64,000 nucleotides of DNA, from positions 670 through 64,669 of the IMG/VR virus record IMGVR_UViG_3300022871_001550. One strand, given 5' to 3'. The stretch comes from a virus (Duplodnaviria > Caudoviricetes). Each line of letters begins with the position of its first letter. The stretch's first letter is position 1. Of the stretch, positions 841 through 63,470 are shown piece by piece. Position numbers and translations under genes: made by a program. The notes under the pieces were generated by a model that saw only the letters and a list, made by a program, of their open reading frames with translations, was not told where the DNA came from and made no database searches.

Positions 841-2892
841 TTAAAAATCGAGTTCTAATTGAAATGATAAAAATCTTGATGCGTCCTTTTTTATGGGATA
901 AGACGGCTTTCCCACAGCAACTAAATTACTATCACCATCAAAAATTCCTATTTCAGTAATGAACGTGCTTTTATACTCTTCTTCTAAATCTTCTACACTG
1001 GCATATGAAATATTATTTGAACTATTAAATTCGCTATTTCTAGCATATACAGTGATGACAGTTTTAAAAACCGTTGACATTATTCCAGTTTTAATATTTC
1101 CAAAAAAGAAACTTTCATTACCAAAAGTTAAGCCGCTTGTTTGAATGTCATCATTAGATGTAAAAGCAGAATAAGCACCTTCAAACGAATATGTTGTTCC
1201 TGAATCATAATCTTCTTGAGATACTACAAAAGAATGAGCTTGTAAATAAACAGGGTCAATAGTGGCACTTCCTGTTTCTCCAGTATATATTCCATTTCCA
1301 ATTCCCGTTGAGACTAGTTTCCAATCATATGTTAATATTTCCCCCACTGTGGTAACTGCTGATGTAGCCATTTCTTTTACTAACAGTTGAATTTTATTTG
1401 CATTCCAACCCGTTCCACTTAAACTGTATAAATTAGCTTCGTTTCTCATGAAAGGAAATTGATTTGTTGGAAATTCTGCCCTTAAATATTGTGGCAAGCT
1501 ATTATCTGCAACTATTGGTGCCATTGAGATACTTTCACAATGTATTGGTTGTGAGTATCCAAAACTTCCACCTTCTTCATAGCTATTACTACTTAGAACA
1601 TATGTTGCAAAGTACGTTTTTCCTGACTTACACAATCCAGTCTGAGTTGGATAAGAAGATGAGGGACTACTTTGTACAGTTAAGTTCAAATTCGGAAGAG
1701 TATAGTTTCTGTTGGATTTATATGTTAATGCAGTTAATAGTTCCTGATTGGTTATTACAAATATTTTTAACTTATGATAAATTCTACCCACAACTAATCC
1801 TGTTTCCACCTCTGAATCTCGTAATTCTTTATAATGAGTTTTTGCAGCACTGTCATAATATACATCACCAGCAACATCATATAATACCAAACCTTGTTGT
1901 GTTTCTGTTCCAACTGGGGAAGATAAAGAATTTTTGTGCCACATAATATTTGGAATGTCTATTTCTGTCGTTCCTGGCACTAATTGTTCTGCATATGTAT
2001 TTCCTGAAAATTGATTTGTGTAATGAACAATTCCAAATGATTTTGTTTCTGATGAAAATCCTAAAAGCATTTTTGTTCCATTATAATCTAAAGAACCATA
2101 TGAAGTAAACCCACTCATAGCAACTGTGGTTCCTATTTCTGATGTAGTTCTAGCTATATTCATGTTCCAAACTCCAGTGTTAATAGTAGTAGATGAACCA
2201 TAATATGTTTCTATTCCATCATAAGGGTAAAAGTAAGTTTGCACTTGCTGTAAAGAACCTGAAATTGCTGAACTACCAAAATTCGGTATTGCTCTGTCTA
2301 CTGAAATTGTGTCGCCAGTTACCCCATGTATTCTATACCACATTGCAACACTTGGTTGTCCTGAATAAATATTCGATGTGCTGTTTGTAATTCCTCTATA
2401 TTGTGGTGGCTCCCAAGGAATGTAAACTAAATTGCCAACCTCTGGAGAATAAGACCCTCCAGATAAAGTAATTTCTTCTCCCCCATTGGGTGTGAAAGCG
2501 GAATAATTTATTTCTCTGACTCCCATAGGCGCTCCTTGTCCTAGTTCAGCATTTATGTCAATAGTAAAATTATTAGTATCTCCAGTAAAAAAACCTCGAC
2601 TTTCAGTTTCTGCAGATACAATTTGTCTTGCACTCCCTAAATTTTGTCCATCTAAAGTAACAAAACCAGACCCATCATAACTTGTAGTAGGAACATCTGG
2701 ATTGTCATCTTGAGGATTTAAAATCATATTATTACAAACATCATAATTGTCTGTAACCAAAGAATAGTTTACCTCATTATCAAATAAACCAACTTTTGCA
2801 AATGTTAATCTTCCTAGAGAAAGCAATCTTCTACCTGTATCGGTTAACTTCATGTTGATGAAGTTTGTAGGTTCTTTTATAATATAGCCCAT
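841..2892 (-). CDS. Baseplate wedge/tail-fibre attachment structural protein
   Basis: N-terminal LTDTGR and C-terminal ITEIGIFDGDSNLVAVGK motifs recall P2 gpH-type tail-collar domains; S/T/G-rich. Confidence 0.6.
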   Translation of the reverse strand: MGYIIKEPTNFINMKLTDTGRRLLSLGRLTFAKVGLFDNEVNYSLVTDNYDVCNNMILNPQDDNPDVPTTSYDGSGFVTLDGQNLGSARQIVSAETESRGFFTGDTNNFTIDINAELGQGAPMGVREINYSAFTPNGGEEITLSGGSYSPEVGNLVYIPWEPPQYRGITNSTSNIYSGQPSVAMWYRIHGVTGDTISVDRAIPNFGSSAISGSLQQVQTYFYPYDGIETYYGSSTTINTGVWNMNIARTTSEIGTTVAMSGFTSYGSLDYNGTKMLLGFSSETKSFGIVHYTNQFSGNTYAEQLVPGTTEIDIPNIMWHKNSLSSPVGTETQQGLVLYDVAGDVYYDSAAKTHYKELRDSEVETGLVVGRIYHKLKIFVITNQELLTALTYKSNRNYTLPNLNLTVQSSPSSSYPTQTGLCKSGKTYFATYVLSSNSYEEGGSFGYSQPIHCESISMAPIVADNSLPQYLRAEFPTNQFPFMRNEANLYSLSGTGWNANKIQLLVKEMATSAVTTVGEILTYDWKLVSTGIGNGIYTGETGSATIDPVYLQAHSFVVSQEDYDSGTTYSFEGAYSAFTSNDDIQTSGLTFGNESFFFGNIKTGIMSTVFKTVITVYARNSEFNSSNNISYASVEDLEEEYKSTFITEIGIFDGDSNLVAVGKPSYPIKKDASRFLSFQLELDF

Positions 2893-3027
2893 TGTAATTT
2901 TTTTATTATAAATATACTAGGAAAAAATATTTAAAAAAAAAATTAAAATAAATAGTAAAACGGAAAAAAAAGAAAATAGTTTATTTTTGAATTCTTTTTT
3001 ACTTATATTTATTAAAAAAGAAGAAAT

Positions 3028-5679
3028 ATGGCTTTCGCTGAATCAAATAGTGCAAACACTCTATCGTTAAATTATAGACCAGGAGAAAATAAGAGACTTA
3101 TTGCAAGTAATAAAAGTGCTCTTTTTTCTTTTGGAGATTTTAAAATTGAGCGTAATCTTTATCAAGATGTCATGTCAAGCACAACCAATTCTGCAAGTTT
3201 TGGTGGATTTTCTACACTAGAAACATTAAAAGCAGTTAATTTTGACGACTCTGGACTTAGCATTAGCGTCAATGAAAATGAACTAAATCTTCCCCCAACA
3301 GACCCAGAAAGCCACGTTTATTTTTCTTCTTTTTATACCGAGGCTGCAACTGCAATTAATAATATTATTGAAAATTTTCCTTATGCTGTTTTAGCATGGA
3401 GCGAAGGCGCTGTTAATGTTTTCAATTATAGTGAAGAAATAAATATGATTTCAGGGGTAACATACTCAACGTTTTCACTACATCTTTCCGCTCTAACAAA
3501 CCAAGGGAATATTATAATAAATTCAGGAAACACGCTTGATAAAATCAGCCTAATTTATGAATATAGTAATTATGACATTCAAGTATCAGGAGAAACAAAT
3601 ACGTACAGTATTAAAGAGTATTCTTTTTCGGGGGAACAATTAACATTCACTGTATTTGGGTCTATATTTGGAGATGATATATCAACAAGCACAGAAGCTA
3701 TTTATATAAAACCCATCAAGGAAACATTTAATAATTATTATAATTCAATTACTTCACTTGAATACCAGTTATTAAATACAGGAGAATTGTATATTCCTGA
3801 TATTGAATATGCCTCAGACAGGTCTTATTTAGAAACATTCTACTGGCCTAGAACAATTGATGGGTTTGCACCTGATTCTTATGGAGATGATTATGAGACT
3901 TTTAAAGAAGAATTATTGGCTGCCTCTGAAAAAATTGATGAAGAGAAGACTAACATATTCATAAAGACAATAATTCCTGAAAATTATTTAGAGTATGATT
4001 CTGATAGTATGATTTATAGGACATTAGTACAATCTTATGCTAGAGAATTTGATAGGTTGAAGAAATTTATAGATGGGATTGCTTATGCACACTCAATTAA
4101 TTACAATGATGAAGAAAGTGTGCCTGGCAAATTTTTAATTAAATTAAGCAATCTTTTAGGATGGCAACTTTCAGACTCATTTAGTGAATTAGATTTATTT
4201 GAATATCTTACGACAGATTTAGACGAAGAAGACAATTCTTATTCACATTTTAACTTAGAGATTTGGAAGAGAATTATGGTTAACATAGTTTGGTTGTACA
4301 AGAAAAAAGGAACAAGAGATGCTTTGTCTTTTGTTTTTAAATTGTTAGGTGCTCCTGATTGTTTAGTTAATTTTAATGAATTTGTTTATGATGTAGAAAG
4401 AATTGTTATAACACCACCTATTCGTGCCGTAGCATCAGCACAGGCATTTTTGTTAAGCACAACAAATACGCTGGTTAATTTTACAACACCTACATTTACT
4501 CCATTGGATGAGTCACAATTAAATTTAGTTTCTCCAGCCATTGGGACTTTCCCAATTCAACCCTCTTATTTTACACCAAGCGTACAACCAATTGTACCTG
4601 GTGCATTTACAATAAACGAAACAATGTTATCTGGTATAGTAAGTTCGGACATTATAATTCCAATAAACATTGAAATTCCTGAAATAAATAGCAATAAAGT
4701 AGATGCAAATGGCTTTGTAAATTACAAGAATTCAACATATATTTTCCAACAAGGAGGAGCGGGTCGAGGCGATGGCCAAGACTACATCAATCAATGGAGA
4801 CCAGAATTTAATCCTACTATTAGGATTGACAACGTGAAAGTTCAAACTGGAAATACAGATGTAAGAATAGGAACTAAAACAATAATGAACTCTAAAGAAG
4901 TAGATTTATATTTTACTCCAGCGAAAGCTATAGAGTGTGATGTCTTTGAGTTTTACCAACAAACAGGTAGTTGTTGGAGTTGGGGAAGCACGGGACCTTC
5001 TTTTAGCGCTTTGACTGTCCCTTATGAATATTTAAACTTTGATTGTTCCGTGGCGAGCCCAAGCAATATAGAAGACATGACTTTAAGTCAATATATAGAT
5101 TATATTTTCACAAATTCAATAGACCCCACTACAAGAAAAACAAATGCGCAAGGACATAATACATGGCATTATCCTGAATTGAAAAATATTTATTTAAATT
5201 ATTATTTTTCTGTTAACCCAGAAGGAAATCATTTAACAATGGGAAAACTAGAATCTTTTTTAACTTTATTAGAAACTCATTTGGGGGATTATATACAACA
5301 ACTAATTCCCGCAACTACAATATTTAAAGGAGAAGGGTCTATTACATATAAAAACCCAGAATTCCATAGACAAAAATTTGTTTACAAAGAAGGTATAGAT
5401 AAAGGCTCAACGTTTCAAACTCATTTACAAGACGATATTGACCCGTCTATAAATCCAAAGCATTTTTCTTTAAATGTTTCTACAGGAGTAGAGGGCACAT
5501 TAAATTGCATTGTTGTTAGCACAATCATACCTAGTCAACATGTAGTAAACAATTCAGTTTTTAATATTGAAATGATTATAGGCTCAAGCATAAGTGCAAG
5601 AATTGCAGGATGGGATGTTAATAGTAATGTAGATGGAGAAACTGCAGATTATTTACATAATTTAATAGATTTAACATAA
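3028..5679 (+). CDS. Baseplate wedge protein with a P2 gpI-like domain
   Basis: LIKLSNLLGW...IVWLYKKKGTRDALSFVFKLLGAP is a Tail_P2_I-type motif; baseplate context. Confidence 0.65.
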   Translation: MAFAESNSANTLSLNYRPGENKRLIASNKSALFSFGDFKIERNLYQDVMSSTTNSASFGGFSTLETLKAVNFDDSGLSISVNENELNLPPTDPESHVYFSSFYTEAATAINNIIENFPYAVLAWSEGAVNVFNYSEEINMISGVTYSTFSLHLSALTNQGNIIINSGNTLDKISLIYEYSNYDIQVSGETNTYSIKEYSFSGEQLTFTVFGSIFGDDISTSTEAIYIKPIKETFNNYYNSITSLEYQLLNTGELYIPDIEYASDRSYLETFYWPRTIDGFAPDSYGDDYETFKEELLAASEKIDEEKTNIFIKTIIPENYLEYDSDSMIYRTLVQSYAREFDRLKKFIDGIAYAHSINYNDEESVPGKFLIKLSNLLGWQLSDSFSELDLFEYLTTDLDEEDNSYSHFNLEIWKRIMVNIVWLYKKKGTRDALSFVFKLLGAPDCLVNFNEFVYDVERIVITPPIRAVASAQAFLLSTTNTLVNFTTPTFTPLDESQLNLVSPAIGTFPIQPSYFTPSVQPIVPGAFTINETMLSGIVSSDIIIPINIEIPEINSNKVDANGFVNYKNSTYIFQQGGAGRGDGQDYINQWRPEFNPTIRIDNVKVQTGNTDVRIGTKTIMNSKEVDLYFTPAKAIECDVFEFYQQTGSCWSWGSTGPSFSALTVPYEYLNFDCSVASPSNIEDMTLSQYIDYIFTNSIDPTTRKTNAQGHNTWHYPELKNIYLNYYFSVNPEGNHLTMGKLESFLTLLETHLGDYIQQLIPATTIFKGEGSITYKNPEFHRQKFVYKEGIDKGSTFQTHLQDDIDPSINPKHFSLNVSTGVEGTLNCIVVSTIIPSQHVVNNSVFNIEMIIGSSISARIAGWDVNSNVDGETADYLHNLIDLT

Positions 5680-5689: not shown

Positions 5690-7324
5690 ATGATTTTAGA
5701 ATATAGCGATATAAAACAAATATTTGTCCAAAATGAATACAATAGGATTTCAGGAGGCGATTTGTCAAATGCACAAATATTTTATTCAAATAGGTGGATT
5801 GAAAAAGAAGTAGGGGAAACTAGCCTCTTTGCATATGATACCCCAATGTATACAACAATAGGTGGTACGCTAAATTATTATGGACAAGATATAAATTCTA
5901 TATTCACTAATACATATAGACCTTCCATCAGATTCAATTTTAGCGCCAATACAGACAGTTTTGGCACTGGAACTACAATTGTTCATAATATCTATAAAAT
6001 TGACTTTAAGACATTTCAAAAGAGCTCCTCGAACCTTCAATTGAATGATGCTTCTAAAGAAAACCTTTCTATAAAGGAAATTACTGAAAATAATCAAAAA
6101 AATAAATTTGATAAAACTACGGCCACCTTAACAGAAAACAATGTCAATATAAATGATTTTTATGATAATGCATATTCAAATGTAGAAACGCTATTAGAAA
6201 CACCAATTTTAACAATAACAGCATCTACTACGGGAATAACAAGTAATATTTATGATTTAGCCTTAGATGAATGTTATAAAAATTTAGGGTCATATAAATT
6301 TCAACTATTTGAAGATAGGTCTCAATATTTTATTACAACAATCTTTATGTTTGAAAGAACTCAAGGTGAAGATTATGTTGATTTTTACAAATATAGTGAT
6401 GAAAGCGGTTTATATGAGTACGATTTTCAAAAAACATTTGTTGAAGAAACTTCGATAGTAAACTATACAATTACAGCGGGGACATTTTCTGGCTTAAGCG
6501 TGGCAGGAAATTTCTTTTCTTATTTTTTAATTCCAAATAAACCAAAACTACAAGAGCCTTTAGTGAGTGGTCAACTAGATACGTTTACGCCTACTTTTCG
6601 TTTTTCTGATGTAGATGATGGCAATAAGTATTTATTACAAGTTGTTTATAGTTCAGGGGATAGTATGAGCTTTTCAGGAACGGTATACTCATATCCATTA
6701 AGTAAAGAGGATTCTGCCTTAGATACAAGGGAAATGCTAGGGTTGGAAAGTGGAGATTGGGGAATAGATTATGAAGTAAAAGATGTATTTAGAAAGCTAT
6801 CCGCACCTTTAAAACCAAACAAAAATTTTTGGTATAGAATAGGAAACATTAAAACAATTAATAATTTATTTGGTGTTGACCAAAGCGTAGTTACCTTCTC
6901 AGATATTTTAAGTGCAACTACAGGTTCTGATTTATTATCCACATTTGTTCAAGTGGAATCGGATAGTCCATATGTTGAAACTGTTCCAATATATGAAACC
7001 CCTACATACATAGATGATACTGAAGAGCCCACCTACACTCTAAGTGGAATTGTAAGCGGGAGTATAGTTACTGGTGCAACCGTTTATTTATACTATCCGA
7101 GTGACGTATACATTTCTCAAACCACAACAGAAACTGGATATTATGAATTTAATGAAATTGATGAAGGTGAATATACTCTCGTAACAAACTACAGAGGCTA
7201 CAAACAAGATTCAAGAGATGTCTCTATTACAGGAAATACAAGTTTATCCTTTAAAATAAAGCTAGTTTGGGGTAACAATATTGACACTTGGAATAAATTA
7301 GCTAATGAAAATTATTTCATTTAA
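5690..7324 (+). CDS. Virion structural protein with a C-terminal carboxypeptidase-regulatory-like (transthyretin-fold) domain
   Basis: YTLSGIVSG...GATVYL...TTETGYYEFNEIDEGEYTLVTNYRGY pattern. Confidence 0.55.
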   Translation: MILEYSDIKQIFVQNEYNRISGGDLSNAQIFYSNRWIEKEVGETSLFAYDTPMYTTIGGTLNYYGQDINSIFTNTYRPSIRFNFSANTDSFGTGTTIVHNIYKIDFKTFQKSSSNLQLNDASKENLSIKEITENNQKNKFDKTTATLTENNVNINDFYDNAYSNVETLLETPILTITASTTGITSNIYDLALDECYKNLGSYKFQLFEDRSQYFITTIFMFERTQGEDYVDFYKYSDESGLYEYDFQKTFVEETSIVNYTITAGTFSGLSVAGNFFSYFLIPNKPKLQEPLVSGQLDTFTPTFRFSDVDDGNKYLLQVVYSSGDSMSFSGTVYSYPLSKEDSALDTREMLGLESGDWGIDYEVKDVFRKLSAPLKPNKNFWYRIGNIKTINNLFGVDQSVVTFSDILSATTGSDLLSTFVQVESDSPYVETVPIYETPTYIDDTEEPTYTLSGIVSGSIVTGATVYLYYPSDVYISQTTTETGYYEFNEIDEGEYTLVTNYRGYKQDSRDVSITGNTSLSFKIKLVWGNNIDTWNKLANENYFI

Positions 7325-7361: not shown

Positions 7362-8054
7362 ATGAGTGAACTAATATTAACCGCATACACATACGACCAG
7401 GGAAGAATTGCTATAAACAATGCTTTTAGTGGCACAGCTGAATTTAATGTCTTTTCAGCGTCAACAATTTACTCAGGAAGTACTGATTTGTATAATATAT
7501 TTTTAACAGAGGCAGATGGAAACGATATAACAAGAGTCCAGTCAGGGGCAAATATAATAACTGGTGGCACCGCAAATTCGCCAATTGTTAATTTAGCTGA
7601 CTCTCCTTCAGTGGAAAATTTCATATCAAGCGGAAACTCAAGTTTTAACGTACTTTCAGCGTCAACAATTTACTCAGGAAGTACTGATTTGGGTGATATT
7701 ATAGCTTCGATATCTGGGGGCACTAGTGGAGGGGTAACTCCTTTTGTTGAGATTGTTTATTTTTCTGCTGGAAATATACTTTGGGATGTTAATAGTGATG
7801 CTAATGTGTATTTTAATTTAACAGCGGACACTACCCTACAGGTAGCAGGCTCTAGTAATGGGATGATTGGAACATCCATGGTAATTCAAGATGGAGGCCA
7901 TAAACTCGCTCTCTCAGGAACAAATAAAATTGTAAACGGAGGCGGAGGAGTTTTAAACGTTACTTCAACAGCTGGTGCAGAAGATATTGTTTCTTTTGTA
8001 GATATCAACGGTGTTAAATATTGGAATATCGGATATAATTACAACTCATCATAA
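7362..8054 (+). CDS. Short tail-fibre/appendage-like protein with an internal repeat
   Basis: Duplicated SASTIYSGSTDL; Gly/Ser/Thr-rich; fibre-tip-like C-terminus AGAEDIVSFV..G.KYW. Confidence 0.55.
   Translation: MSELILTAYTYDQGRIAINNAFSGTAEFNVFSASTIYSGSTDLYNIFLTEADGNDITRVQSGANIITGGTANSPIVNLADSPSVENFISSGNSSFNVLSASTIYSGSTDLGDIIASISGGTSGGVTPFVEIVYFSAGNILWDVNSDANVYFNLTADTTLQVAGSSNGMIGTSMVIQDGGHKLALSGTNKIVNGGGGVLNVTSTAGAEDIVSFVDINGVKYWNIGYNYNSS
7453..7691 (+). repeat. Perfect 38-bp direct repeat (7453-7490 and 7654-7691)
   Basis: tttcagcgtcaacaatttactcaggaagtactgatttg occurs twice, 201 nt apart and in frame. Confidence 0.9.
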
Positions 8055-8057: not shown

Positions 8058-8939
8058 TTACGTATTTTGCTGAGAAAATTGGTCAAAATCTTGATTAAAG
8101 TTAATTGTACTACGCTCTTCTTTGATATCAACCTCTCCACGAGAAAAAAGTTTCTTTCTAGTTAATAGATTATATTGTTTGTATAAGCTTCCATTTTCAT
8201 CAAAAATACTATATATACCCGTTTCAAGGTCTCTTGTTGAATTCCCAAAAATACCATAACTTAAAGTTTTAATAGTTTGGTCAACCATTTCAATTTCTAA
8301 CATAATTGGGTCAAAAAAAGTATTAGAAATTATAATTTGTTGACCAGCCTTGCCTAAATCTGCTTGTTTGACATCAGAAATTAAGCTAATTTCATCTGGA
8401 GTTAATGTTAAAAATAAAAATGCACCATTATCATCTAAAACATATGATTGAGAAGAAGACGGGTTGGACTGATTACTATTTGGAGCCGAACTTACCAAGT
8501 CACTTCCTGTAATAATTCTATGAAAATTTTTAACCTTTATGTTATTGTCATCAAAATATTCTAATTGATAACCTATTAAGCTACCAGTTCCTTGAAATTG
8601 CAACTTTGGAATAACAATTCCTTTTTTTGAAACTTGTATGTCTTCATCTGTTTCTCTAACAACATAAGAACAATCAACTATTTCTACTTCATATGATTTT
8701 GGCTTTACTAAAACAACATAAAAGCCCAATTGATTAAAAATAGATGCTGGCAATCTTAATTTAAAAGCACCATCAGCTCCAAACATTTTCATAAATTCTG
8801 AGCTTGTTACATTTGAGAATAACGGTGAAAGTTGATTGTCGGTGACTTGTTCTCTGCTCTGAGAATAGGCATATAAAATGTCTACATCGTTAAAATCTAC
8901 ATCTGCTAACCTCTTTGTTCCATATATTCCTACTGCCAT
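8058..8939 (-). CDS. Hypothetical protein (probably structural)
   Basis: 293-aa ORF in the baseplate region with TATTTAT upstream. Confidence 0.6.
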   Translation of the reverse strand: MAVGIYGTKRLADVDFNDVDILYAYSQSREQVTDNQLSPLFSNVTSSEFMKMFGADGAFKLRLPASIFNQLGFYVVLVKPKSYEVEIVDCSYVVRETDEDIQVSKKGIVIPKLQFQGTGSLIGYQLEYFDDNNIKVKNFHRIITGSDLVSSAPNSNQSNPSSSQSYVLDDNGAFLFLTLTPDEISLISDVKQADLGKAGQQIIISNTFFDPIMLEIEMVDQTIKTLSYGIFGNSTRDLETGIYSIFDENGSLYKQYNLLTRKKLFSRGEVDIKEERSTINFNQDFDQFSQQNT

Positions 8940-9012: not shown

Positions 9013-10725
9013 CTACCCATCGGTAGTGTCAATAATTGTTATTTCAGACCTAGAGCTAGATTCTGTTCTATATTGTAAATTAAATAAATTACTTAATTTT
9101 ATCTCGCACCTTCTATCCCTAAGATTAAGCGTATCTAATAGTACTTTTGCAATATCTAACAAAATAAATTCCTGTCCCTCTTGTGGATAATAAAATTTAT
9201 CCTCAACACCATATTCAAAATCAGAAGATTGTAATAAATAATCTTGAAACTCCCACGAAACTTTAAATGACTCATTTCCAAATGCTGGTTCAGATAATAA
9301 AACTTTTACCTGGAAATTTTCTTCTTCATTATAAGAAAGCCTACTACTTTCCAATCCAATTAAAACTTCTATATTTGAAAAGAACTCGTTTTCATTTGTT
9401 TTTAAATTTAAATCTACAAAACACTGAATCAATTGTGGCTGCTCATTACTAACAATTACCTCTGGCTGCGTATCTATTGCATTTGTTAAAGTTTGAGCTG
9501 ATAACAGATGCTCTGTGCCATTTAAAACTGCCTCATTGATTATTCTAATGTTAGTGTCAAAATTAACTGCCCTTATAGTATCGTTTACGATATCGTCTTC
9601 AAAAAGAATGTTGTTTCTTAAAACAAACTCATGTGCAAATGGTATTGAAACATAATTCACATCTTCAAAGCCATCAGAATTTATATACACGTTTTGTTGT
9701 CTTAAACTAATGTCTTTTTCCAATTCTTGTTTTTCAATCTTATTGATTTTCTTATATCCCTTAGTTTCATAAAAACTTCTTACTACACTGTAGATTTGGT
9801 CATCTGTAAAAACATCATCTCCATCATTGACAATTTCCTTTTTCTTTAAATTGAGTTCATCTGAAACTACGCTAATTTTATCAATCAATTGTTTTTGTTT
9901 TTCCTTTATAGAAATCGTTGGTGTTATATCTAAATTCGAATTATTTACTTCGATAGGTATAGTTCTTGGTCGAACTGTTGAGTTACGTTCAATTAAACTA
10001 TTTAAAAATCCATCTTCGATATTTGTTGAATCAAGATTAAAAAAAACCGTATTGCCTAAAGAAAGGCTTTTTATTATTTTTTTATCACATAATTCAAAAT
10101 TGTCCCTTGAGATTTGAGCAGTCTTTCTTTGTAATAAAATATTAATAAAATAATTTTCATCTGTGGGCATTTTAATTATAACATTTTCAAATTCTCTGTT
10201 TCTTTGTTCTGTATTAAAATCTAAAGGGATATATTGTAAATACTTAGGCAACATTGTAGTAGTGCCTGTGTTCCATAAAAAATTATTATTTCTTTTTGAA
10301 AATAACTTATATTCAAATTCAGTCTCATTTAAATTGGAGATTTGATTTGAAAGATATTTCTCATTAAAAAGACTGCCCCTAAGGACTGTATTATTATAAT
10401 AATCATTAAAAACTTCGGCAAGTTTTTTATCATTATAATATATTTCCTTAAACGCTGGGGAAGCTTTAAATTCGGTTCCGTTTGATGTTTGCATTAGTTC
10501 ATTCATCAACGTATTGCCTGTTAAATAAGCCATAAAACCACTTATAACAGCTTGATTTCTTGCATTATCAATAAATCCTCTTACATTATATTCATCAACT
10601 ATTTTATTGTACTCCCCCTCTTCATTGAGCAAATAGTTATTGTAAGACTTTAAATTACTTTGTTTAAAATCCTTCGTTGTAGACGAAAACATTCTGTTTA
10701 TCAATATGTTAAAATTGTACGTCAT
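9013..10725 (-). CDS. Hypothetical virion protein with a possible Calx-beta/Ig-like C-terminus
   Basis: 570-aa ORF; the C-terminal VKVLLSEPAFGNESFKVSW...SDFEYG is beta-sandwich-like. Confidence 0.5.
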   Translation of the reverse strand: MTYNFNILINRMFSSTTKDFKQSNLKSYNNYLLNEEGEYNKIVDEYNVRGFIDNARNQAVISGFMAYLTGNTLMNELMQTSNGTEFKASPAFKEIYYNDKKLAEVFNDYYNNTVLRGSLFNEKYLSNQISNLNETEFEYKLFSKRNNNFLWNTGTTTMLPKYLQYIPLDFNTEQRNREFENVIIKMPTDENYFINILLQRKTAQISRDNFELCDKKIIKSLSLGNTVFFNLDSTNIEDGFLNSLIERNSTVRPRTIPIEVNNSNLDITPTISIKEKQKQLIDKISVVSDELNLKKKEIVNDGDDVFTDDQIYSVVRSFYETKGYKKINKIEKQELEKDISLRQQNVYINSDGFEDVNYVSIPFAHEFVLRNNILFEDDIVNDTIRAVNFDTNIRIINEAVLNGTEHLLSAQTLTNAIDTQPEVIVSNEQPQLIQCFVDLNLKTNENEFFSNIEVLIGLESSRLSYNEEENFQVKVLLSEPAFGNESFKVSWEFQDYLLQSSDFEYGVEDKFYYPQEGQEFILLDIAKVLLDTLNLRDRRCEIKLSNLFNLQYRTESSSRSEITIIDTTDG

Positions 10726-16000: not shown

Positions 16001-16386
16001 GTAAAGTTTTCTGATTGACCTGAAAATATATCATACATCTGGTCGTTAAAATGTTCACTAATAGACCTTGGAATTGCATCTATACCTTCTGAAAATTGAG
16101 AAAATGTCCTTCCAGTTATCATTCTGCCTCCTGGTGGTATTTCTTGTAATCTTTGAATATTATCTTCTCCGCTAACGTGCCAAACTTCTATTTGATTTGA
16201 CGTGGTTATTGCAGTGTTGCCTTGAAATTCAGAAGCAACAATCATCTTCATGGGACTATCAAAACTATCTAAATATAAAGCAGCAGGAATTGATGATATT
16301 GGATAATTATTTTCCGAAATCATGGTATCAAAATACGTAATAGTAGTACCTGTTCTATATTTTTTTAATAGTATATCTTCTTGCAT
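13048..16386 (-). CDS. Large baseplate-associated structural protein
   Basis: 1112 aa, directly downstream of the gp6-like gene; VVFGKL...PLIGVPIGIF...TVLTNEYGEFIIHDVPVGAQTL is a transthyretin-like segment. Confidence 0.55.
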   Translation of the reverse strand: MQEDILLKKYRTGTTITYFDTMISENNYPISSIPAALYLDSFDSPMKMIVASEFQGNTAITTSNQIEVWHVSGEDNIQRLQEIPPGGRMITGRTFSQFSEGIDAIPRSISEHFNDQMYDIFSGQSENFTFVQEKLLDDFSVNIKLERSFDILNTLSTYNKAYKEFPVRNAQVGVVFGKLEAIQKIKDEEGNFVRVPLIGVPIGIFQPGNKFGSVSDVDKDGNRIRLNFKSPDDSWPNQNYYFDALTYQSDFNNYLPNMNDYIFDENNPLIEMPAEFQNTVLTNEYGEFIIHDVPVGAQTLMFEVDLLQQGMTQDEVALNFYPYSGNKDENIGSVPHFFFRQIPIDVVPAWGEIQSGYTEVNIKANLDLRKWATYFFPPACNKIQGIKSRYFQDNGSFKDEGDIGEVVLDRDDNSSEGVFFKIGDPALLRVIPTPLTVEVRDMTKISPAEIKNSNKSVQMVQVEDMLDRKEGKINVMSWQNEFSQIRDRVEFRKFGYNAIRIPANIYDPNGYKTQSSGIPKNGMHQKGVWLCSYQFKMYHANPNTAYRTTGFYLSNEEYNNSRDNYHINSEFPDGGDSGPDIDISSSINNDKVRLGNFPFEKSWSINYPTKYSIPKKPFISVLPRVITHGIRSYNLIESPSYTDGHLVGIGLGHNPDYGSIPTGGFGHARFGRNTEGGTAIDNDWYATSFSYYITNSELYHYEYSPFKQFGMYANGYFQEEDSYINYNDEMSPKPFSHVDNGEEYQRVEAGHGYYLHPFGLPRVGARYGFDYSCEYDNYRAANTILSGKTGFMLNNSEGADEDFYFSKSLNNYGVIFDEGHTCALRMDYDDEGDYRNNKNQGALSIYRIVNPGSIADPTEVYSLIQTSNVISYKCKIDFQRTRIQNARTTVRSSKMRKDNNGDQDCWTYWTDIKQGRTAGLQNKAYMTIKNNGATTATVKVNSITYVIASGTDSDPIFAEDIDTWDNMIIELESNAERGISENEGPIWAKFDYSFSFYAVTIPKYGTNGDEYVNCSNMDKYNIDFQEDAEINSNEIFYVTTRLSNIKTRTSCSSSTSFINGNIITVDGFYFINGDSSTILGIDVGKQKAESALSNETSWCAAYDGYYHGEWLN

Positions 16387-26994: not shown

Positions 26995-27040
26995 ATTATA
27001 AGAATGTTTTAAATTGTTGTTAATTAAATTTATTTAATTT

Positions 27041-27817: not shown

Positions 27818-27841
27818 ATAATTTACATTTAGGATAAAAAT

Positions 27842-38116: not shown

Positions 38117-38120
38117 CTCG

Positions 38121-53598: not shown

Positions 53599-55254
53599 AT
53601 GAGTGAATTATTAAACAGTGGTAAAGTTGGATTAACAATCTTTAAAAACCTTGCCGAACAAAGAAAAGCAATTGTTGTCAATTGGAATGAATCTGGCCTT
53701 TTAGAAGGTTTAGGTGGAATGAAGAAAGTAAACATTGCACAACTTTTGGAAAGTCAAGCTCAACATATGCTTAACGAAGTAACATTAGATGCTTCTGCAG
53801 GTAGATTTGACACAGTAGCTTTTCCAATCGTAAGAAGAGTATTCTCAAGACTTCTTGCAAATGAAATCGTATCTGTACAGCCTTTAGCGCTTCCTTCAGG
53901 TCTTTTATTCTACATGGACGCTAGAGTATCTTATGACGGTGCTGATAACACACAACAAGACCCAGTTACAAGAGAAGATGCATGGTTAAATGCTAACGGT
54001 AACATGTCAAAAGTTCCACCAAGAAGCGGAGCTAATAGTCAAGAAGGTCCTACGTTTGCTACAACAACAGCATATGAAAGATTTTATAACAACCGTGGTT
54101 TCGACCTTTCATTCGGTTCAGGTTACACAGCTTTAGGTACATTTGCAACAGTGAATGCATCTGGATTTACTGGTGGTTTAGCTACTCAAACTTTTGCTTT
54201 AGGCGTAGGTTTTGATGTAAGTAAGCAACAGTCAAGTGCAACTGTACGTCTTTCTGCAAGTACTGCTATTTATTACAGTGCAGGTTCAACAAACATCCTT
54301 GTAGTAGCTGCTGGCTCTCCAATACCTTTCTATTCACAAATTCAATCTTGGACACAAGACCAATTTGCTGGAAATCAAGCTAACGTTGTTATGGACCTTA
54401 GACCAGCTTCTGTAATTGGAAGTGACTTTAATGTCGATATGATAAATGATAATACTAACTTTGGTGCTGCATATAACATAACTATCGCTCCTGTATATGA
54501 AATCTTCCAAGACCTTGAAGGTTCTGCTGATATGGGTGAAATCACATTGAGATTCTCAAGTGTAACAGTTAACACTATTACAAGAAAACTTAGAGCTCAC
54601 TGGACTCCTGAATTAGCTCAAGACCTTGAAGCATACCACTCAATTGATGCTGAGGCTGAATTAACAGCTTTATTGTCAGAGCACGTTGCTGCAGAAATTG
54701 ACAGAGAAATTCTTATTGACCTTATCAACCAAGCTCCTTTCAGAGCACGTTGGGACTATAATGGATTATCAAATAACGCTAACTTCTTTGGAACACAAAA
54801 AGACTGGAATCAAACTCTTATTACAAGGGTAAATGAACTTTCAGCTCAGATTCACAAAGCAACACTTCGTGGTGGAGCTAACTGGATTGTTTGTTCAGCA
54901 GAAGCTGGAGCAATTTTTGATGACCTTGAGTATTTCCACGTTGATACTTCAGCTGCACCAGAAAGCGAAAAGTACAACTTAGGTGTTGAAAAAATCGGGA
55001 ACTTAGGTTCAAGATATGTTGTATATAAAGACCCTTATTTACCAGCACAAATCGTGTTATTAGGTCACAAAGGTTCTACATTCTTAGAGGCTGGGTACAT
55101 TTATGCACCATACATCCCATTACAATTAACACAAACAATCACTGACCCTAACGACTTCACACCTCGTAAAGGAATCATGACAAGATACGCGAAGAAAATG
55201 GTTAACAACCGTTTCTATGCAGTAGTTTATATTGACAACATTAACACTTACTAG
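53599..55254 (+). CDS. gp23: Major capsid protein (T4 gp23-like)
   Basis: PIVRRVF..L.ANEIVSVQP..LPSGL.FY, TRKLRAHWTPELAQDLEAYH.IDAEAEL, YAPYIPL and FTPRKGIMTRY. Confidence 0.97.
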   Translation: MSELLNSGKVGLTIFKNLAEQRKAIVVNWNESGLLEGLGGMKKVNIAQLLESQAQHMLNEVTLDASAGRFDTVAFPIVRRVFSRLLANEIVSVQPLALPSGLLFYMDARVSYDGADNTQQDPVTREDAWLNANGNMSKVPPRSGANSQEGPTFATTTAYERFYNNRGFDLSFGSGYTALGTFATVNASGFTGGLATQTFALGVGFDVSKQQSSATVRLSASTAIYYSAGSTNILVVAAGSPIPFYSQIQSWTQDQFAGNQANVVMDLRPASVIGSDFNVDMINDNTNFGAAYNITIAPVYEIFQDLEGSADMGEITLRFSSVTVNTITRKLRAHWTPELAQDLEAYHSIDAEAELTALLSEHVAAEIDREILIDLINQAPFRARWDYNGLSNNANFFGTQKDWNQTLITRVNELSAQIHKATLRGGANWIVCSAEAGAIFDDLEYFHVDTSAAPESEKYNLGVEKIGNLGSRYVVYKDPYLPAQIVLLGHKGSTFLEAGYIYAPYIPLQLTQTITDPNDFTPRKGIMTRYAKKMVNNRFYAVVYIDNINTY

Positions 55255-57303: not shown

Positions 57304-58503
57304 ATGTCATTTTGCGCAGATGGTTGTTTAACGGGAATGACTTCAACCCAACAAACAAACCTTTTTAATAGAATAAGAAGAAAAATAGGAGCTCCTGTTA
57401 TGGGGGTGGAATTAGTTGATGAACAAATTGAAGAATGTGTTTGTGAAGCAATTGAAGAATATTCTAGTTTAATAAACAATTGGGTATTAGTAAATAGATT
57501 AGGCGAAATGCTTGGTATGCCATCTGATGTAGATTTTACTTTAAAATATGTTTCTAATAGTTTATATTTTGAAAAATCTTTTGGAAAAGCGATTGCTGAA
57601 CAAACAGGTTTAGGTGCAGAGGGAACACGTCCAATTAAATCAGATTATATTAAATTAACTGGCGGTACTCAAATGTATGAGATTCCTGCTGAAAGAGAAA
57701 TGAATGAAGTATTATGGTTTACCCCTTCTTTTATTAACTTATTTGGATTAGACCCTTTTGCAAATACGAATATTGCCTTTTCAGAATTTGGTGCCTCCTT
57801 TGCTGGTCACACTTTATATCACGTAATGCCTGTTTTTGATACTATTATGACAGCACAGGCTGCTGAGCTAAGAAATAGAGTTAGAGGTTCTGAATATTCT
57901 TATGTTATTAGACCTGGAGAAGAAGGAAAAAAATATTTATTTTTATATCCTATTCCACGAGTAGGCACATCAACAGATGCAGGTACATCTGGAGGAATTG
58001 GTGGTGGTGCAGGTACTCCTGGAACAGTATTTTACCGTTATTATGACAGATATGGACATTATGGTAATCCAGATTTTTCAGGGAACACAGCAAATCCAGG
58101 ATGGACAGGTTATACAGATACTGAAATTAATCAAGGATATCAAGGAAATGGTTTAGTTTCATCCCCTGCTGATGCCCAACTTAATTATATTTCATATGCT
58201 CAATTAAATTCTAATGCTCAAACCTGGGTTAAAAAATATTCTCAAGCTTTAGCAAAAGAATTACTTGGTATAGGAATTAGAGGTAAATTCAATGGAGTTT
58301 TACCTATTCCAGATGCAGAATTAACAATGAATAAAGATGATTTAATCTCCACTGGTAGAGAAGACCAACGGCTTATGAAAGAAGAATTGAAAGCTGACCT
58401 AGGAGAAATGAGCTATGACAAAATAATGGCAAAAAGAGCTGAAATTCAAGATGCTGTAAATAAAAGCTTAAGTTATGGACCTATGGGGCTTTATCTATGG
58501 TAA
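57304..58503 (+). CDS. Neck/head-tail adaptor (T4 gp13-like)
   Basis: IRRKIGAPVMGVELVDEQI and WVKKYSQALAKELLG..RGKF.G.LP.P...LTMN. Confidence 0.8.
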   Translation: MSFCADGCLTGMTSTQQTNLFNRIRRKIGAPVMGVELVDEQIEECVCEAIEEYSSLINNWVLVNRLGEMLGMPSDVDFTLKYVSNSLYFEKSFGKAIAEQTGLGAEGTRPIKSDYIKLTGGTQMYEIPAEREMNEVLWFTPSFINLFGLDPFANTNIAFSEFGASFAGHTLYHVMPVFDTIMTAQAAELRNRVRGSEYSYVIRPGEEGKKYLFLYPIPRVGTSTDAGTSGGIGGGAGTPGTVFYRYYDRYGHYGNPDFSGNTANPGWTGYTDTEINQGYQGNGLVSSPADAQLNYISYAQLNSNAQTWVKKYSQALAKELLGIGIRGKFNGVLPIPDAELTMNKDDLISTGREDQRLMKEELKADLGEMSYDKIMAKRAEIQDAVNKSLSYGPMGLYLW

Positions 58504-60288: not shown

Positions 60289-62991
60289 ATGGCAACAATA
60301 TTTGTATCACCAGGGATTTATGATAGAGAACAAGACTTTACCGTATTTGCCTCAAGAATTGGAATAACAAGATTAGGATTAGTAGGAAAAACATTAAAAG
60401 GTCCTGCCTTTCAATCAATAAAAGTAGCGAGTGCAGATGAGTATGCATTGAGATTTGGGGGAACACACCCAGATTATCCTTTGGGATATGTAGCTAATGC
60501 ATTTTTAGCTCAAGCTAATGATTTAACAGTATCTAGGGTTTTGGGTGCAAGTGGTTTTACAAACTCTCCAGCATGGTTGGTTGTAGCAGATTCAGTTCCT
60601 TTATATACTGGAAGTACAACTGTAAGTGGTTCAACATTTACTGCTAGTGATGCAACAGGTCCAACTATTTATACAATTACATTTGAAGAGGACAGTGTCA
60701 TGGAGGATGGTTCTGCAAGTGCTCAAACTGCTGTTGATAGTGCTATTACAATTGGTTTTTCTGGTTGTAGTATGTCAGAAATATATGCAGCATTAGTAAC
60801 TGGGGTTGATGCTAATTGGGCTGCTTTTGGAATTACAATGACTGATAGCGTTGGTGGTGGTGATATTGTAGATAGTGCAATAACCATTACCACAATAACA
60901 GCTGAAGATGTAATCGTTTATTCTGGAGCTACATTGGCAATTTTAAGAAGTAAGAAAGATGAGCTTGGAATAGCAATATTTGATTTGGAAACTGATGTTG
61001 AAATTGGTATACCAGGGGCGAATGCATTATCTAATTTTATAATAAGTGGAACAACTGGTCCTTTAACAGCATATACAAATGGATTAACCGTTTGTTTAGA
61101 CGAGACTAAAGAAAATTATATTGTTAAAGTTTTTGGAACTAATCCAGAACAAATAACTGGCACTTTGGGACTTTATGTAGAAGAGATTTATCCTCATTTT
61201 ATTAGAGAAGCTGTTGCTAGAAATGAAATTGGAAGTATTGAAACATCTCTTTTATTTAAAGCAATTACAAATAATGGTTATGCTGATTATAATAATGGTT
61301 ATACTCATTCTGAAACTCCTTGGATTGTATCTAGAGTAGTTGGTGGAATAGTTAATAATTTATTTAAATTTCATACTATTTCTGATGGTAATGCTTCTGC
61401 TCAAGAGATTAAAATTTCTATTGGAAATATTGACCCTTTAAATTATACATTTGATGTTTATGTGAGAAGGTTTGATGATACTGATGCAACTGCATCACAA
61501 ACAATGTTAGAAAGGTTTCCAAATGTAACTTTAGATGATACTCAAAGTAATTTTATTGGAAAATACATTGGGACTTATGATGAAGAATATCCAAGTAAAT
61601 CTATGTTTGTTCTCGTAGAGATGGCGGAAAGGTATCCTGGCAATACTGTACCTGCTGGTTTTAGAGGTTATGAATTAAGAGGAGATAGTGATGCTACACT
61701 TGGAACATCTGCTGATATTTATTATAAAACAACATATTTATCTGGAGATACAGTATATAAAACATATCTTGGTATTTCTGAATTAGGATATACAAGTTTA
61801 ACAGCTTCAAATGTATCATCAAAAAATGCAGTTAAAACAATAGAAAAAGATTTGTTTAAATATCATGGAGGTTATACTACAACAGGAATTACTACAATTA
61901 AAGGTTTCCATTTAGAAAATACTGCAGATGCTGCAACTTTTATTTCAGGTGATAAAGCTACGATTACAGCTTACACAAAAACTGGCCTTGTAGGAATTAC
62001 AGATAAAACTAAACTTAAATTTACTGTTGTGCCTATTGGTGGATTTGATGGATTTGATAAATATGAAACATATACTTATGGATATCAAGAGTTTATTTCA
62101 ACTAAAGCAAATAATGTTGCTCAATATAAAGCTGCAATTGACGTCTTTTCAAATCCTGAAGAGGTTGATATTAATTTATTAGCAACTCCAGGTGTTGATT
62201 TCAGCAACAATGAGGAAATTGTTAAATATGCATTAGATATAGTTGAAGAAAGAGCTGATGTACTTTATGTAATTGATTCTCCAAGAATTACAGATTCTAT
62301 TGATAAAGGAATTCCTGAAGAGGCTGTAAACTTATTAGAGGCTACGGGGATTGATTCTAATTACGCAGCTACTTATTGGCCTTGGATTCAAATTGAAGAT
62401 ACTATTTCGGGAAAATATACTTATCAGCCACCTACTTTATTAATAGTGAAAGCATTAGCTTTAACTGATAATGTTGCTGCTCCTTGGTTTGCACCAGCTG
62501 GTTTAAACAGAGGTGTTGCTGGAGCAAGCATTAAACAGACAGATATTAAACTTAACAAAGAAAAAAGAGATACATTATATGAAGGAAGAATTAATCCAAT
62601 AGCAAGCTTTGTTCAACAAGGTATTGTAATTTGGGGACAGAAAACCCTTCAAGTGCGTCAATCATCTCTTGATAGAATTAATATTAGAAGATTATTACTT
62701 CAAGTTAGAAGGTTAATTGCTGCGGCTTCATTAACTTTATTGTTCGAACAAAATGACCAAACTTTAAGAGACCAGTTTTTAGCGAAAGTTGAGCCTATTT
62801 TATTGCAAATTCAAAATCAAAGAGGTTTGTCAGCATTTAAAGTTGTTATGGATGATTCTAATAATAATGAAGATACAATTGATAGAAATATGTTGATTGG
62901 TAAAATTCAGCTTAAGCCAACAAGAACTGCTGAATTTATTGACCTTACATTTCAAGTTTTACCAACTGGAGCAAATTTTGAGGACTTTTAA
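60289..62991 (+). CDS. gp18: Tail sheath protein (T4 gp18-like)
   Basis: FVSPGIY..EQD, GKTLKGPAF, YAATYWPW, PWFAPAGLNRG, WGQKTLQ, LDRINIRRLL and LKPTRTAEFI. Confidence 0.96.
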   Translation: MATIFVSPGIYDREQDFTVFASRIGITRLGLVGKTLKGPAFQSIKVASADEYALRFGGTHPDYPLGYVANAFLAQANDLTVSRVLGASGFTNSPAWLVVADSVPLYTGSTTVSGSTFTASDATGPTIYTITFEEDSVMEDGSASAQTAVDSAITIGFSGCSMSEIYAALVTGVDANWAAFGITMTDSVGGGDIVDSAITITTITAEDVIVYSGATLAILRSKKDELGIAIFDLETDVEIGIPGANALSNFIISGTTGPLTAYTNGLTVCLDETKENYIVKVFGTNPEQITGTLGLYVEEIYPHFIREAVARNEIGSIETSLLFKAITNNGYADYNNGYTHSETPWIVSRVVGGIVNNLFKFHTISDGNASAQEIKISIGNIDPLNYTFDVYVRRFDDTDATASQTMLERFPNVTLDDTQSNFIGKYIGTYDEEYPSKSMFVLVEMAERYPGNTVPAGFRGYELRGDSDATLGTSADIYYKTTYLSGDTVYKTYLGISELGYTSLTASNVSSKNAVKTIEKDLFKYHGGYTTTGITTIKGFHLENTADAATFISGDKATITAYTKTGLVGITDKTKLKFTVVPIGGFDGFDKYETYTYGYQEFISTKANNVAQYKAAIDVFSNPEEVDINLLATPGVDFSNNEEIVKYALDIVEERADVLYVIDSPRITDSIDKGIPEEAVNLLEATGIDSNYAATYWPWIQIEDTISGKYTYQPPTLLIVKALALTDNVAAPWFAPAGLNRGVAGASIKQTDIKLNKEKRDTLYEGRINPIASFVQQGIVIWGQKTLQVRQSSLDRINIRRLLLQVRRLIAAASLTLLFEQNDQTLRDQFLAKVEPILLQIQNQRGLSAFKVVMDDSNNNEDTIDRNMLIGKIQLKPTRTAEFIDLTFQVLPTGANFEDF

Positions 62992-63091: not shown

Positions 63092-63110
63092 ATTTATTAA
63101 TTATATTGTT

Positions 63111-63470
63111 TTAATTAAAGTTATTTAAGTCTTCTAAGATTTCTATTAAAATCCCCCCCATAGATGGAACAGATAGTCTTTTTCCATTTGAAAAATTCAA
63201 TTCAAATTCCCCTAAAAATTCTCCAGCTTCATCTGTGTCTCCATCTTGCCATGCATATTCAAAAGTAGACCCGCTTGCGCAAGTTGTTGTTGCAGATTGT
63301 TCAAAGATTTTTGTGGTATTGCATTTAGTTTTAACCATTGTAAATGTAATTAAGTCAACATCAGTAATGTCAAATTCAGTTTTTTCTCCTAAATTTCCAG
63401 TTGATGTTAGATTGACTTGCAGCACAGGAAGCGTGTCGTTTCTTTTTATTTTAAAAACGTCTAAGCTCAT
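63111..63470 (-). CDS. BppU N-terminal-like (Ig-like) virion protein
   Basis: IKRNDTLP.L...YAWQDGDTDEAGEFLGEFEL.F..G..LSVP. Confidence 0.6.
   Translation of the reverse strand: MSLDVFKIKRNDTLPVLQVNLTSTGNLGEKTEFDITDVDLITFTMVKTKCNTTKIFEQSATTTCASGSTFEYAWQDGDTDEAGEFLGEFELNFSNGKRLSVPSMGGILIEILEDLNNFN

Follow-up and report, generated by a model that had tools for sequence, protein, structure and literature searches.

A clade-specific, sequon-like [S/T]-[G/A]-x-T motif in virion-module proteins of an uncultured T4-like jumbo phage

The tetrapeptide motif [S/T]-[G/A]-x-T is enriched about five times over chance in the virion-module proteins encoded by a 64,000-nucleotide stretch of viral DNA from IMG/VR record IMGVR_UViG_3300022871_001550. 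This stretch, hereafter the window, comprises bases 670-64669 of the single 64,669-base record and by estimate ~20% of the genome. It has a GC content of ~0.30 and carries a T4-type morphogenesis module, and its source is an uncultured T4-like jumbo phage. The motif is residue-specific, conserved, and restricted to one clade and to the virion module, and sugar clusters are present in that clade. We propose that many non-homologous virion-module proteins carry a sequon-like recognition tag specific to the clade, hydrophobic-[S/T]-[G/A]-x-T; the capsid, neck and fibre proteins are among them, as are peripheral baseplate proteins and the sheath in its N-terminal part. The tag would be read by a phage transferase, most plausibly for O-glycosylation. 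From the sequence comparisons below, we give this reading a probability of roughly 0.5.

The motif was originally predicted in the form [S/T]-[G/A]-x-[T/S], as a possible O-glycosylation sequon of structural proteins, and all tetrapeptides listed then were found at the genes named. The protein encoded at 841..2892, for example, contains TGDT twice, SGFT, SGNT, SGKT, TGET and SGTT; the sheath additionally has TGPT and SGCS. Across the 59 open reading frames (ORFs) of the window, [ST][GA]x[ST] was observed 98 times, compared with 41.6 in global shuffles and 45.9 in shuffles confined to 30 amino acids (aa). The proteins at 841..2892 (15 vs. 4.0 in shuffles), 5690..7324 (10 vs. 2.0) and 7362..8054 (10 vs. 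2.2) reached their observed counts in 0 of 2000 shuffles, global or local. For those at 3028..5679 (9 vs. 2.8; p 0.0005), 18794..20209 (7 vs. 1.1) and the sheath (14 vs. 4.2), p was at most 0.0015. Thr is dominant at position 4, and the motif was therefore sharpened to [ST][GA]xT for later counts. In this form it occurs 75 times in 26 virion-module proteins, whereas residue shuffles gave 14.7±3.8 (never more than 28 in 1000) and dipeptide-preserving ones 21.0±4.5 (never more than 34 in 300). One site was found in the 33 non-virion proteins, vs. 4.8±2.1 expected, so the predicted contrast between structural and other proteins is present; the line between the two sets was drawn by position and annotation after the per-ORF motif counts had been seen. 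Thr stands at +3 of 75 of the 251 [ST][GA] dipeptides (30%), against a Thr frequency of 7.1%; the corresponding figure for T4 is 55 of 771.

The virion proteins are rich in Ser, Thr and Gly, which is what speaks for chance, composition or a DNA-level signal as the source of the motif. This explanation can be practically discounted. The observed count was reached in none of the 1000 residue and none of the 300 dipeptide-preserving shuffles, and the 30-aa local shuffles agree, so composition and local S/T/G richness were rejected. Codon use at motif positions 1, 2 and 4 is the same as background, indicating that selection acts on protein rather than DNA, and a DNA-level motif was likewise rejected. 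The S/T/G-rich proteins of T4, S-RIM8 and immuto have no comparable excess. Shared paralogous domains were rejected at the BLAST level, with no matches at E < 0.05 among the 26 virion proteins.

The motif is spread over at least 12 window proteins with up to 13 sites per protein. In the following lines, T-type sites are those with Thr at position 4, and totals include Ser.

841..2892, minus strand: 683-aa tail-module protein, fold unassigned; 13 T-type sites vs. 1.93 expected (15 counting Ser)
3028..5679, plus strand: 883-aa tail-module protein; 7 T-type sites vs. 1.27 (9 in all)
5690..7324, plus strand: 544-aa protein with a C-terminal CarboxypepD_reg-like domain; 8 T-type sites vs. 1.06 (10 in all)
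7362..8054, plus strand: 230-aa fibre-like protein; 8 T-type sites vs. 0.87 (10 in all)
9013..10725, minus strand: 570-aa tail-module protein; 3 sites vs. 0.27
13048..16386, minus strand: 1112-aa baseplate-region protein; 5 T-type sites vs. 1.04 (7 in all)
18794..20209, plus strand: 471-aa protein; 5 T-type sites vs. 0.48 (7 in all)
53599..55254, plus strand: gp23-type major capsid protein (PF07068, 3.8e-72); sites at residues 174, 188, 219 and 227
57304..58503, plus strand: neck (head-tail adaptor-like) protein (phrog_211); 4 sites vs. 0.59
60289..62991, plus strand: 900-aa tail sheath (phrog_23 match at residues 386-897); 13 T-type sites vs. 2.6
63111..63470, minus strand: 119-aa protein beside the tube gene; 2 sites vs. 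0.30

The large proteins at 841-8054 have no family match except the CarboxypepD_reg-like domain (PF13620/PF13715, just under the Pfam cut-off) and were called virion proteins by position and synteny with relatives, not by homology. For the 841 protein, no match was found in Pfam, PHROG or PDB sequences, and Foldseek on its model gave none at E <= 0.001. The fibre-like protein at 7362..8054 holds a duplicated SAST-x2-SGST unit, and alike repeat units are found in the relatives' fibres. Faint beta-helix-associated matches (Disaggr_repeat and CBM96), under the cut-off, were obtained for the protein at 18794..20209. Of the 13 T-type sites of the sheath, 10 fall within residues 88-263, on the N-terminal side of the main conserved match. 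Three of the sites in the 551-residue capsid protein are T-type, vs. 0.97 expected; the capsid sites align to approximately residues 156-199 of T4 gp23, a region that is motif-free in T4, LR756508 and immuto. Singly, the capsid, the neck protein and the 570-aa protein at 9013..10725 are weak contributors. The tail tube (63489-63977) and two small neck-region proteins have no sites in the window or in five related genomes, with low expected counts.

The enrichment is specific for one three-position pattern. Among class patterns of the forms 1-2-x-4, 1-x-3-4 and 1-2-3, [ST][GA]x[ST] ranked top in the six richest proteins (65 vs. 16.4; z 13.2, a value inflated because these proteins were picked for the motif). 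The runner-up (z 5.2) was the same motif preceded by a hydrophobic residue. At the residue level, SGxT (25 vs. 4.5), SAxT (21 vs. 3.3), TGxT (19 vs. 4.2) and TAxT (10 vs. 3.2) were enriched, and SGxS weakly so (10 vs. 5.2). No enrichment was found with other residues at position 1, as judged from NGxT (5 vs. 3.8), DGxT (2 vs. 3.2), GGxT (2 vs. 4.0) and AGxT (3 vs. 3.0). The pairwise terms are only 1.27, 1.27 and 1.06, indicating a three-position effect. Ala and Gly are about equally enriched at position 2 (7.6x and 8.5x). Flanks were analyzed at 617 sites from six genomes, so that an orthologous site enters the count more than once. The residue at -1 is hydrophobic, namely L (2.4x), Y (2.1x), F (1.7x), V or I; charged residues are depleted from -3 to +3, Pro is at 0.3x at the x position, and Asp is at 0.4x at -1.

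Related sequences extend the finding to a clade. Sheaths encoded at 48 IMG/VR loci are 46-73% identical to that of the window, and all full-length sheath orthologs in the clade are enriched ~2-3.5x. Five larger records were compared, namely G001 (291 kb), G002 (372 kb), G005 (101 kb, without its last 1.5 kb), G003 (222 kb) and G004 (135 kb), with ORFs called mechanically (at least 100 aa, longest first). The first three are syntenic with the whole window, including a sugar block described below, and G003 and G004 share with it only the head-neck-sheath-tube module. In these relatives, whose sheaths are 50-73% identical to that of the window, virion-module enrichment is 2.8-5x: 179 sites observed vs. 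36.2 expected in G001, 128 vs. 35.7 in G002, 100 vs. 23.9 in G005, 90 vs. 28.1 in G003 and 51 vs. 18.5 in G004. The rest of the relatives' genomes is near 1x, except the G002 remainder (1.55), and for G002 the virion module comprises synteny-defined regions only. Eight orthologs shared by all six genomes have 23 sites vs. 5.2 expected in the window, 19 vs. 5.5 in G001, 15 vs. 5.1 in G002, 19 vs. 4.7 in G005, 22 vs. 5.4 in G003 and 13 vs. 4.9 in G004. The enrichment of these orthologs is thus equal across subclades (2.7-4.4x). Orthologs of the 119-aa protein in G001-G005 have two or three sites each.

Individual sites are conserved as well. Of 8000 candidates scored against the 841 protein, 1104 matched at E <= 1e-5. 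In an alignment of 118 of these 1104 (118 of the 120 matches listed), each homolog has 8-17 sites, with a mean of 13.3 vs. 2.2 expected. Eight alignment columns keep the motif in 98-118 of the 118 homologs listed; in them S and T interchange at position 1, and in some G and A do so at position 2, whereas position 4 is Thr with few exceptions and as many as 14 different residues occur at x. Position 1 of these columns is almost only S or T. In ortholog comparisons, in which orthologous sites are non-independent counts, the S/T class was kept at 332 of 432 positions inside motifs (77%) and at 2091 of 3684 outside (57%). The alignment of 31 sheaths has 80 motif columns, six of which are held by at least 20 sequences, showing that conserved sites coexist with turnover in the variable N-terminal part. 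The G003-type subclade (L039, L040-L048; G003 208406-213459) has two tandem sheath paralogs of 786 and 879 aa, both motif-enriched.

The motif is not a generic property of T4-type virions. The T4 virion module has 30 sites vs. 30.2 expected. Counts for whole genomes were 39 vs. 28.5 (RM378), 65 vs. 45.4 (Cr30), 138 vs. 92.2 (S-RIM8) and 131 vs. 88.1 (Flavobacterium phage immuto, without its last 410 bases), and 86 vs. 75.0 were found in the first 400 of the 484 kb of LR756508, the nearest named relative (its last 84 kb were left out); all five are at 1.15-1.5x genome-wide. With [ST][GA]x[ST], no ORF reached p < 1e-3 in five control phages, against five window ORFs at p <= 1.4e-4. The sheaths of T4 (2 vs. 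1.6), immuto (3 vs. 2.7) and RM378 (2 vs. 1.2) contrast with that of the window (13 vs. 2.6). At positions 485, 532 and 560 of the core sheath, the window and G001 or G003 have motifs, and four outgroups (LR756508, immuto, T4 and RM378) do not. The six phages T4, RM378, immuto, S-RIM8, Cr30 and LR756508 thus led us to reject a generic T4-type explanation.

Structural mapping used the secondary structure of predicted models only. The AlphaFold2 model of the 841 protein, built with the 118 homologs listed, has a mean predicted local distance difference test (pLDDT) of 79.2 and a predicted TM score of 0.79. By DSSP on this model, T-type sites are placed at strand ends (93, 103), in a hairpin (192), at helix C termini (387, 575), in coil (131, 260, 296, 511, 537, 586) and at strand starts (423, 564). 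In the model, the 13 sites share no single local conformation and fall into at least four secondary-structure contexts, many of them coming after the end of a secondary-structure element. The sheath model (pLDDT 61.9) was too poor in the motif-rich segment to be used there. By analogy with T4 gp18, which we take as a guide to its orientation, the N-terminal sheath part would face outward. A motif that is real, conserved and clade-specific and has no single local fold behaves like a recognition site, and to this extent the sequon claim stands; attachment of a modification at the sites would be a prediction from it.

These data bear on a possibility that we regard as rather unlikely, a lineage-specific structural or folding element. 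The motif would then be an unread capping or turn device at strand or helix ends, one that relies on bonds from Ser/Thr side chains to the backbone and on a small second residue, and it would have spread as a folding or stability aid in beta-rich virion proteins. Most sites in the 841 model do lie at or just past the end of a strand or helix. The hydrophobic -1 position, the depletion of charges and the positional conservation of sites would suit such a device, as would fibre repeats in which two tags stand 5-6 residues apart and are followed by a conserved hydrophobic stretch. However, Asp and Asn, the usual equivalents of Ser/Thr in ST-turns and Asx-turns, are not enriched at position 1, as the DGxT and NGxT counts show, and the near equality of Ala and Gly at position 2 argues against a positive-phi turn. 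The predicted secondary-structure contexts are mixed, T4, immuto and RM378 have homologous folds that lack the motif, and the motif-bearing proteins have no BLAST similarity to each other. The lack of Asp/Asn, the equivalence of Ala and Gly, the mixed contexts and the motif-free homologous folds thus disfavour a purely structural device.

The fibres of the relatives were inspected for longer repeats. Those encoded at 148087-151002 of G002 and 225397-228198 of G001 match YadA-head repeats (5.5e-11) and, just under the Pfam cut-off, 'phage tail repeat like'; their repeat units of ~70 aa contain two or three tag copies each. A PDB sequence search with the repeat-rich G002 fibre returned chance antibody matches only. 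A repetitive, Gly/Ser-rich, collagen-like gene is present in G003 (219288-222071), G004 (134041-135411) and a further record, G006 (16115-19123), with many SAGT units within runs of S-G-S-S-G, and the adjoining 1421-aa protein matches Pfam Collagen (1.1e-23). This gene terminates both the G003 and the G004 contig and thus probably breaks assemblies; G006 reads through it. Adhesin-type repeats (YadA head, collagen) in fibres, the limitation of the tag to virion-module proteins and its concentration in the N-terminal part of the sheath, outward by T4 analogy, could also point to a ligand-contact surface, an enzyme-free device whose Thr-rich patches would bind host polysaccharide or material from the environment. 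We consider this very unlikely, since binding would not need one three-position pattern across capsid, neck, sheath and fibres, and since the free x together with the strictly small position 2 fits enzyme access better.

In the proposed tag system, the most likely reader would be a cytoplasmic transferase of the phage, acting on virion proteins during or after folding and modifying a hydroxyl of the tag. Either the Thr at position 4, which hardly varies, or the Ser/Thr at position 1 would serve as acceptor, and the modification would most plausibly be an O-glycan built by a sugar cluster in or beside the tail module. The genes considered in this connection are as follows.

23934..41107, minus strand: 17-gene block, candidate writer/glycan cluster by Pfam, between baseplate and head genes
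29507-31750, minus strand: GDP-mannose 4,6-dehydratase (GMD; PF16363, 1e-138), 747 aa
33785-34702: epimerase/reductase (PF01370, 1.8e-42)
39594..40337, minus strand: glycosyltransferase (GT) of family GT2 (PF00535, 1.1e-19), 247 aa; 58-70% identity in G001/G002/G005
45427..46725, plus strand: GT1/GT4-like transferase by Pfam, 432 aa; 57-60% identity in G001/G002/G005
8058..8939, minus strand: 293-aa protein without the motif; 66-74% identity in G001/G002/G005, 55% in G006

Ten genes of the block have Pfam sugar-pathway or transferase families, namely GT1, GMD, DegT aminotransferase, GT11, epimerase/reductase, GT10, GT2, GT25, GT2 and GT2, and seven lack an assignment. The glycosyltransferases (GT1, three GT2, GT10, GT11 and GT25) lie at 25.8-40.3 kb. 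The GMD frame includes a LAGLIDADG_3 match at residues 315-372; its orthologs in G001, G002 and G005 are open frames of 345-350 aa with 46-48% coverage and 68-82% identity, indicating that the LAGLIDADG insertion is absent in these relatives. An ADP-ribosylglycohydrolase gene (46719-47516, plus strand) directly follows the GT1/4 gene and is kept in G001 and G002. A small hidden Markov model (HMM) of the GT1/4 protein found no homolog in G003, G004, LR756508 or immuto.

The G003-type subclade carries a different cluster. In the G003 and G004 contigs, GMD, GT2 and homologs of the window transferases are all missing; HMMs of the window GT1, GT1/4, third GT2 (GT2c) and cluster unknowns found nothing in either, and G003 has a lone Glyco_trans_1_3 gene. 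As these contigs lack a gp6-type gene and end inside the repetitive Gly/Ser gene, they are not evidence of cluster loss. G006, which is identical to G003 over shared ORFs except for the terminal repeat gene (98%), runs past this gene into a sugar cluster, so the subclade is not transferase-free, and the notion that G003 and G004 are transferase-free relatives keeping the motif was withdrawn. The G006 cluster encodes a 787-aa GT2+GT9 fusion, an RmlD-like reductase, a Polysacc_synt_2 dehydratase, methyltransferases and a 1121-aa GT1-FkbM fusion. A sugar cluster is thus present in every clade genome with the tail neighbourhood in view (window, G001, G002, G005, and G003 joined with G006). As annotated, the clusters of both subclades lie within or beside the tail module, and their genes are for the most part not homologous: nothing links them beyond a GT2 domain (30-36% identity, ~95 aa) and weak partial matches. 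Equal enrichment despite largely non-homologous clusters would fit a fixed tag with an exchangeable glycan, as judged from two subclades. The GT2 at 39594..40337 is 35% identical over 92 aa to the GT2 domain of the 787-aa G006 protein and is the sole window transferase with detectable similarity in the other subclade's cluster. As the only one with a counterpart in both subclades, it could be the initiating transferase.

The 293-aa protein at 8058..8939 also follows the clade. Its G006 homolog (33387-34268) adjoins the other subclade's unrelated sugar cluster, and no other gene bordering the clusters was found to be strongly conserved in both subclades. It is the best-conserved protein of the fibre region (66-74% identity vs. 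29-59% for its neighbours). No match to it was found in LR756508, immuto, T4 or RM378, nor in Pfam (E <= 10), a PDB profile search or the ESM Atlas.

Several observations weigh against the proposal that a sugar cluster writes the tag. No transferase is conserved over the whole motif-bearing clade, and 30-36% identity over ~95 aa is ordinary among GT2s. Homologs of GMD (60%), the epimerase, GT25 and GT10 occur in LR756508, whose count of 86 vs. 75.0 amounts to no virion-wide enrichment. A TATTTAT box stands 16-35 nt upstream of 17 other genes, mostly of the virion module, and before none of the 17 cluster genes. The fibres of relatives embed the tag in longer repeat units, and the flanks are uncharged and hydrophobic at -1/+1; both would suit a structural element too. 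In the sheath model, the motif-rich residues 104-207 have pLDDT values below 50. Non-virion proteins of the near-complete relatives are not depleted (G001, 39 vs. 38.4; G002, 69 vs. 44.6; G003, 27 vs. 29.6), giving no sign of motif avoidance, and avoidance in non-virion proteins, for which the window count alone (1 vs. 4.8) had spoken, was dropped. For the original suggestion that the adjacent transferase cluster is the writer, the occurrence of clusters in both subclades is favourable, and the sharing of only a GT2 domain and the LR756508 sugar genes without enrichment are not. The predicted co-occurrence of motif and transferases held in all visible clade neighbourhoods, and LR756508 combines homologs of four of the sugar genes with no virion-wide enrichment.

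Some of these points could also mean that the tag is read otherwise, for instance as a site of phosphorylation, acylation or methylation or as one where a phage chaperone, an assembly factor or a decoration protein docks, while the sugar clusters act elsewhere, for example on host envelope glycans or phage DNA. We hold this to be unlikely. In its favour, no full transferase is common to the clusters of both subclades, and the 293-aa protein follows the clade and adjoins the sugar cluster in G006. The first cluster gene, with its start codon at 41107, is preceded at ~17 nt by a TATATTTG box (region 41090-41250). This box resembles the Bacteroidota -7 element. Together with the missing TATTTAT box, it suggests that the sugar block and the structural genes may rely on promoters of different classes. 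Phage transferases that glycosylate DNA or alter the host serotype have been described (PMC12619734; bioRxiv 10.1101/2023.12.21.572611). On the other side, annotation of 18 distinct clade-shared ORFs yielded no writer candidate, with no kinase or acyltransferase among them; those matched were poly(A) polymerase, PcfJ, family-A DNA polymerase, metallopeptidase and HNH. Moreover, the sugar clusters of the two subclades, non-homologous in content, both stand within or beside the tail module.

The proposed O-glycosylation was compared with known systems. Freeman et al. (2023, Cell Host Microbe) reportedly described mycobacteriophage virion O-glycosylation by phage-encoded glycosyltransferases. To our knowledge, chemically documented virion glycosylation by phage enzymes is confined to mycobacteriophages, giant eukaryotic viruses aside. 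PMC12619734 places mycobacteriophage virion glycans at the C termini of capsid and tail-tube subunits. Like the mycobacteriophages, the window source is a tailed phage that encodes transferases close to its structural genes, and the proposed targets are virion proteins made in the cytoplasm. In contrast to them, its sites are internal (174-227 of 551 in the capsid), its tube is siteless, the pattern has three defined positions, and the system is known from sequence alone, whereas theirs is chemically documented. The same source treats large aquatic phages that are predicted to infect Flavobacteriia and have glycosyltransferases of four core families, and it names virion glycosylation as one possibility (PMC12619734). 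Chloroviruses, according to PMC5408694, encode GMD and the epimerase/reductase of the fucose route and have non-canonical capsid glycan sites, and the table of sugar-metabolism enzymes there includes ADP-ribosylglycohydrolase. GMD and an epimerase/reductase are likewise present in the window, as in chlorovirus PBCV-1, and so is an ADP-ribosylglycohydrolase. The chlorovirus glycan, however, is described there as N-linked glucose on Asn in a eukaryotic virus (PMC5408694). The window tag lacks Asn (see NGxT above), and the host is bacterial.

Cytoplasmic multi-site glycosylation of bacterial adhesins and flagellins offers a further parallel. HMW1C acts on N-x-S/T, the heptosyltransferases Aah and TibC act on autotransporter repeats, and GmaR and CD0240 are GT2 flagellin O-GlcNAc transferases; GT9 is the heptosyltransferase family. 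As proposed here, a soluble transferase in the HMW1C/Aah/TibC-type systems modifies many sites on a large beta-rich surface protein before export or assembly. HMW1C also reads a linear sequon, and the G003-type subclade has the GT2+GT9 fusion. In contrast, the tag differs from N-x-S/T, and no GT9, GT60 or Maf-type family was found in the window contig, which covers ~20% of the genome. We know of no phage examples of this type of glycosylation. The general O-glycosylation of Bacteroidota acts outside the cytoplasm, whereas virions assemble inside. It shares with the tag a three-position motif, a Ser/Thr acceptor next to a small or hydrophobic residue and the presumed host phylum. As originally stated, the tag nevertheless differs from the Bacteroidota sequon: D-(S/T)-(A/I/L/V/M/T) is not enriched in the virion proteins (34 vs. 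36.2±5.7), and Asp is rare before the tag.

Other genes of the window include a gp6-type baseplate wedge protein (16405-18318) and an S77 prohead protease (51411-52067). The capsid and neck genes are separated by a 498-aa HNH/homing-endonuclease gene (55381-56877, plus strand). Of the relatives, G002 has a homolog (67%), G001 and G005 lack one, and G003 and G004 have 39-41% identical copies elsewhere; from this distribution, the gene is probably mobile. The ORFs at 47546-48961 and 49340-49867 (minus strand) both match one ORF in G001 (216288-218603), G002 and G005, with 48-63% identity and 100% coverage, indicating one gene that is interrupted in the window.

Full-text literature searches returned no title or abstract describing such a phage motif, and as far as these searches show, a defined sequon is undescribed for any phage. 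The present analysis adds a dipeptide-preserving control, secondary-structure mapping on a confident model, largely non-homologous clusters with equal enrichment, and a cluster without the TATTTAT box. Taken together, the observations would be compatible with a viral serotype system, a joint reading that we put forward tentatively, as possible rather than probable. The particles of a widespread T4-like jumbo phage clade, probably infecting Bacteroidota, would be coated with O-glycans at the outward faces of capsid, neck, sheath, baseplate periphery and fibres. A cytoplasmic phage transferase would add these glycans at the dedicated sequon. The sequon would be fixed, and the glycan cluster would be swapped between subclades like an O-antigen locus. 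If the tag is a sequon, glycosylated phage proteins would be predictable from sequence, and the large sugar clusters of many aquatic jumbo phages would be explained. The 841-protein family is abundant, with its 1104 matches among the scored candidates. A sugar coat on the particle would, if the tag is a sequon, also bear on adsorption, grazing, stickiness and host defence.

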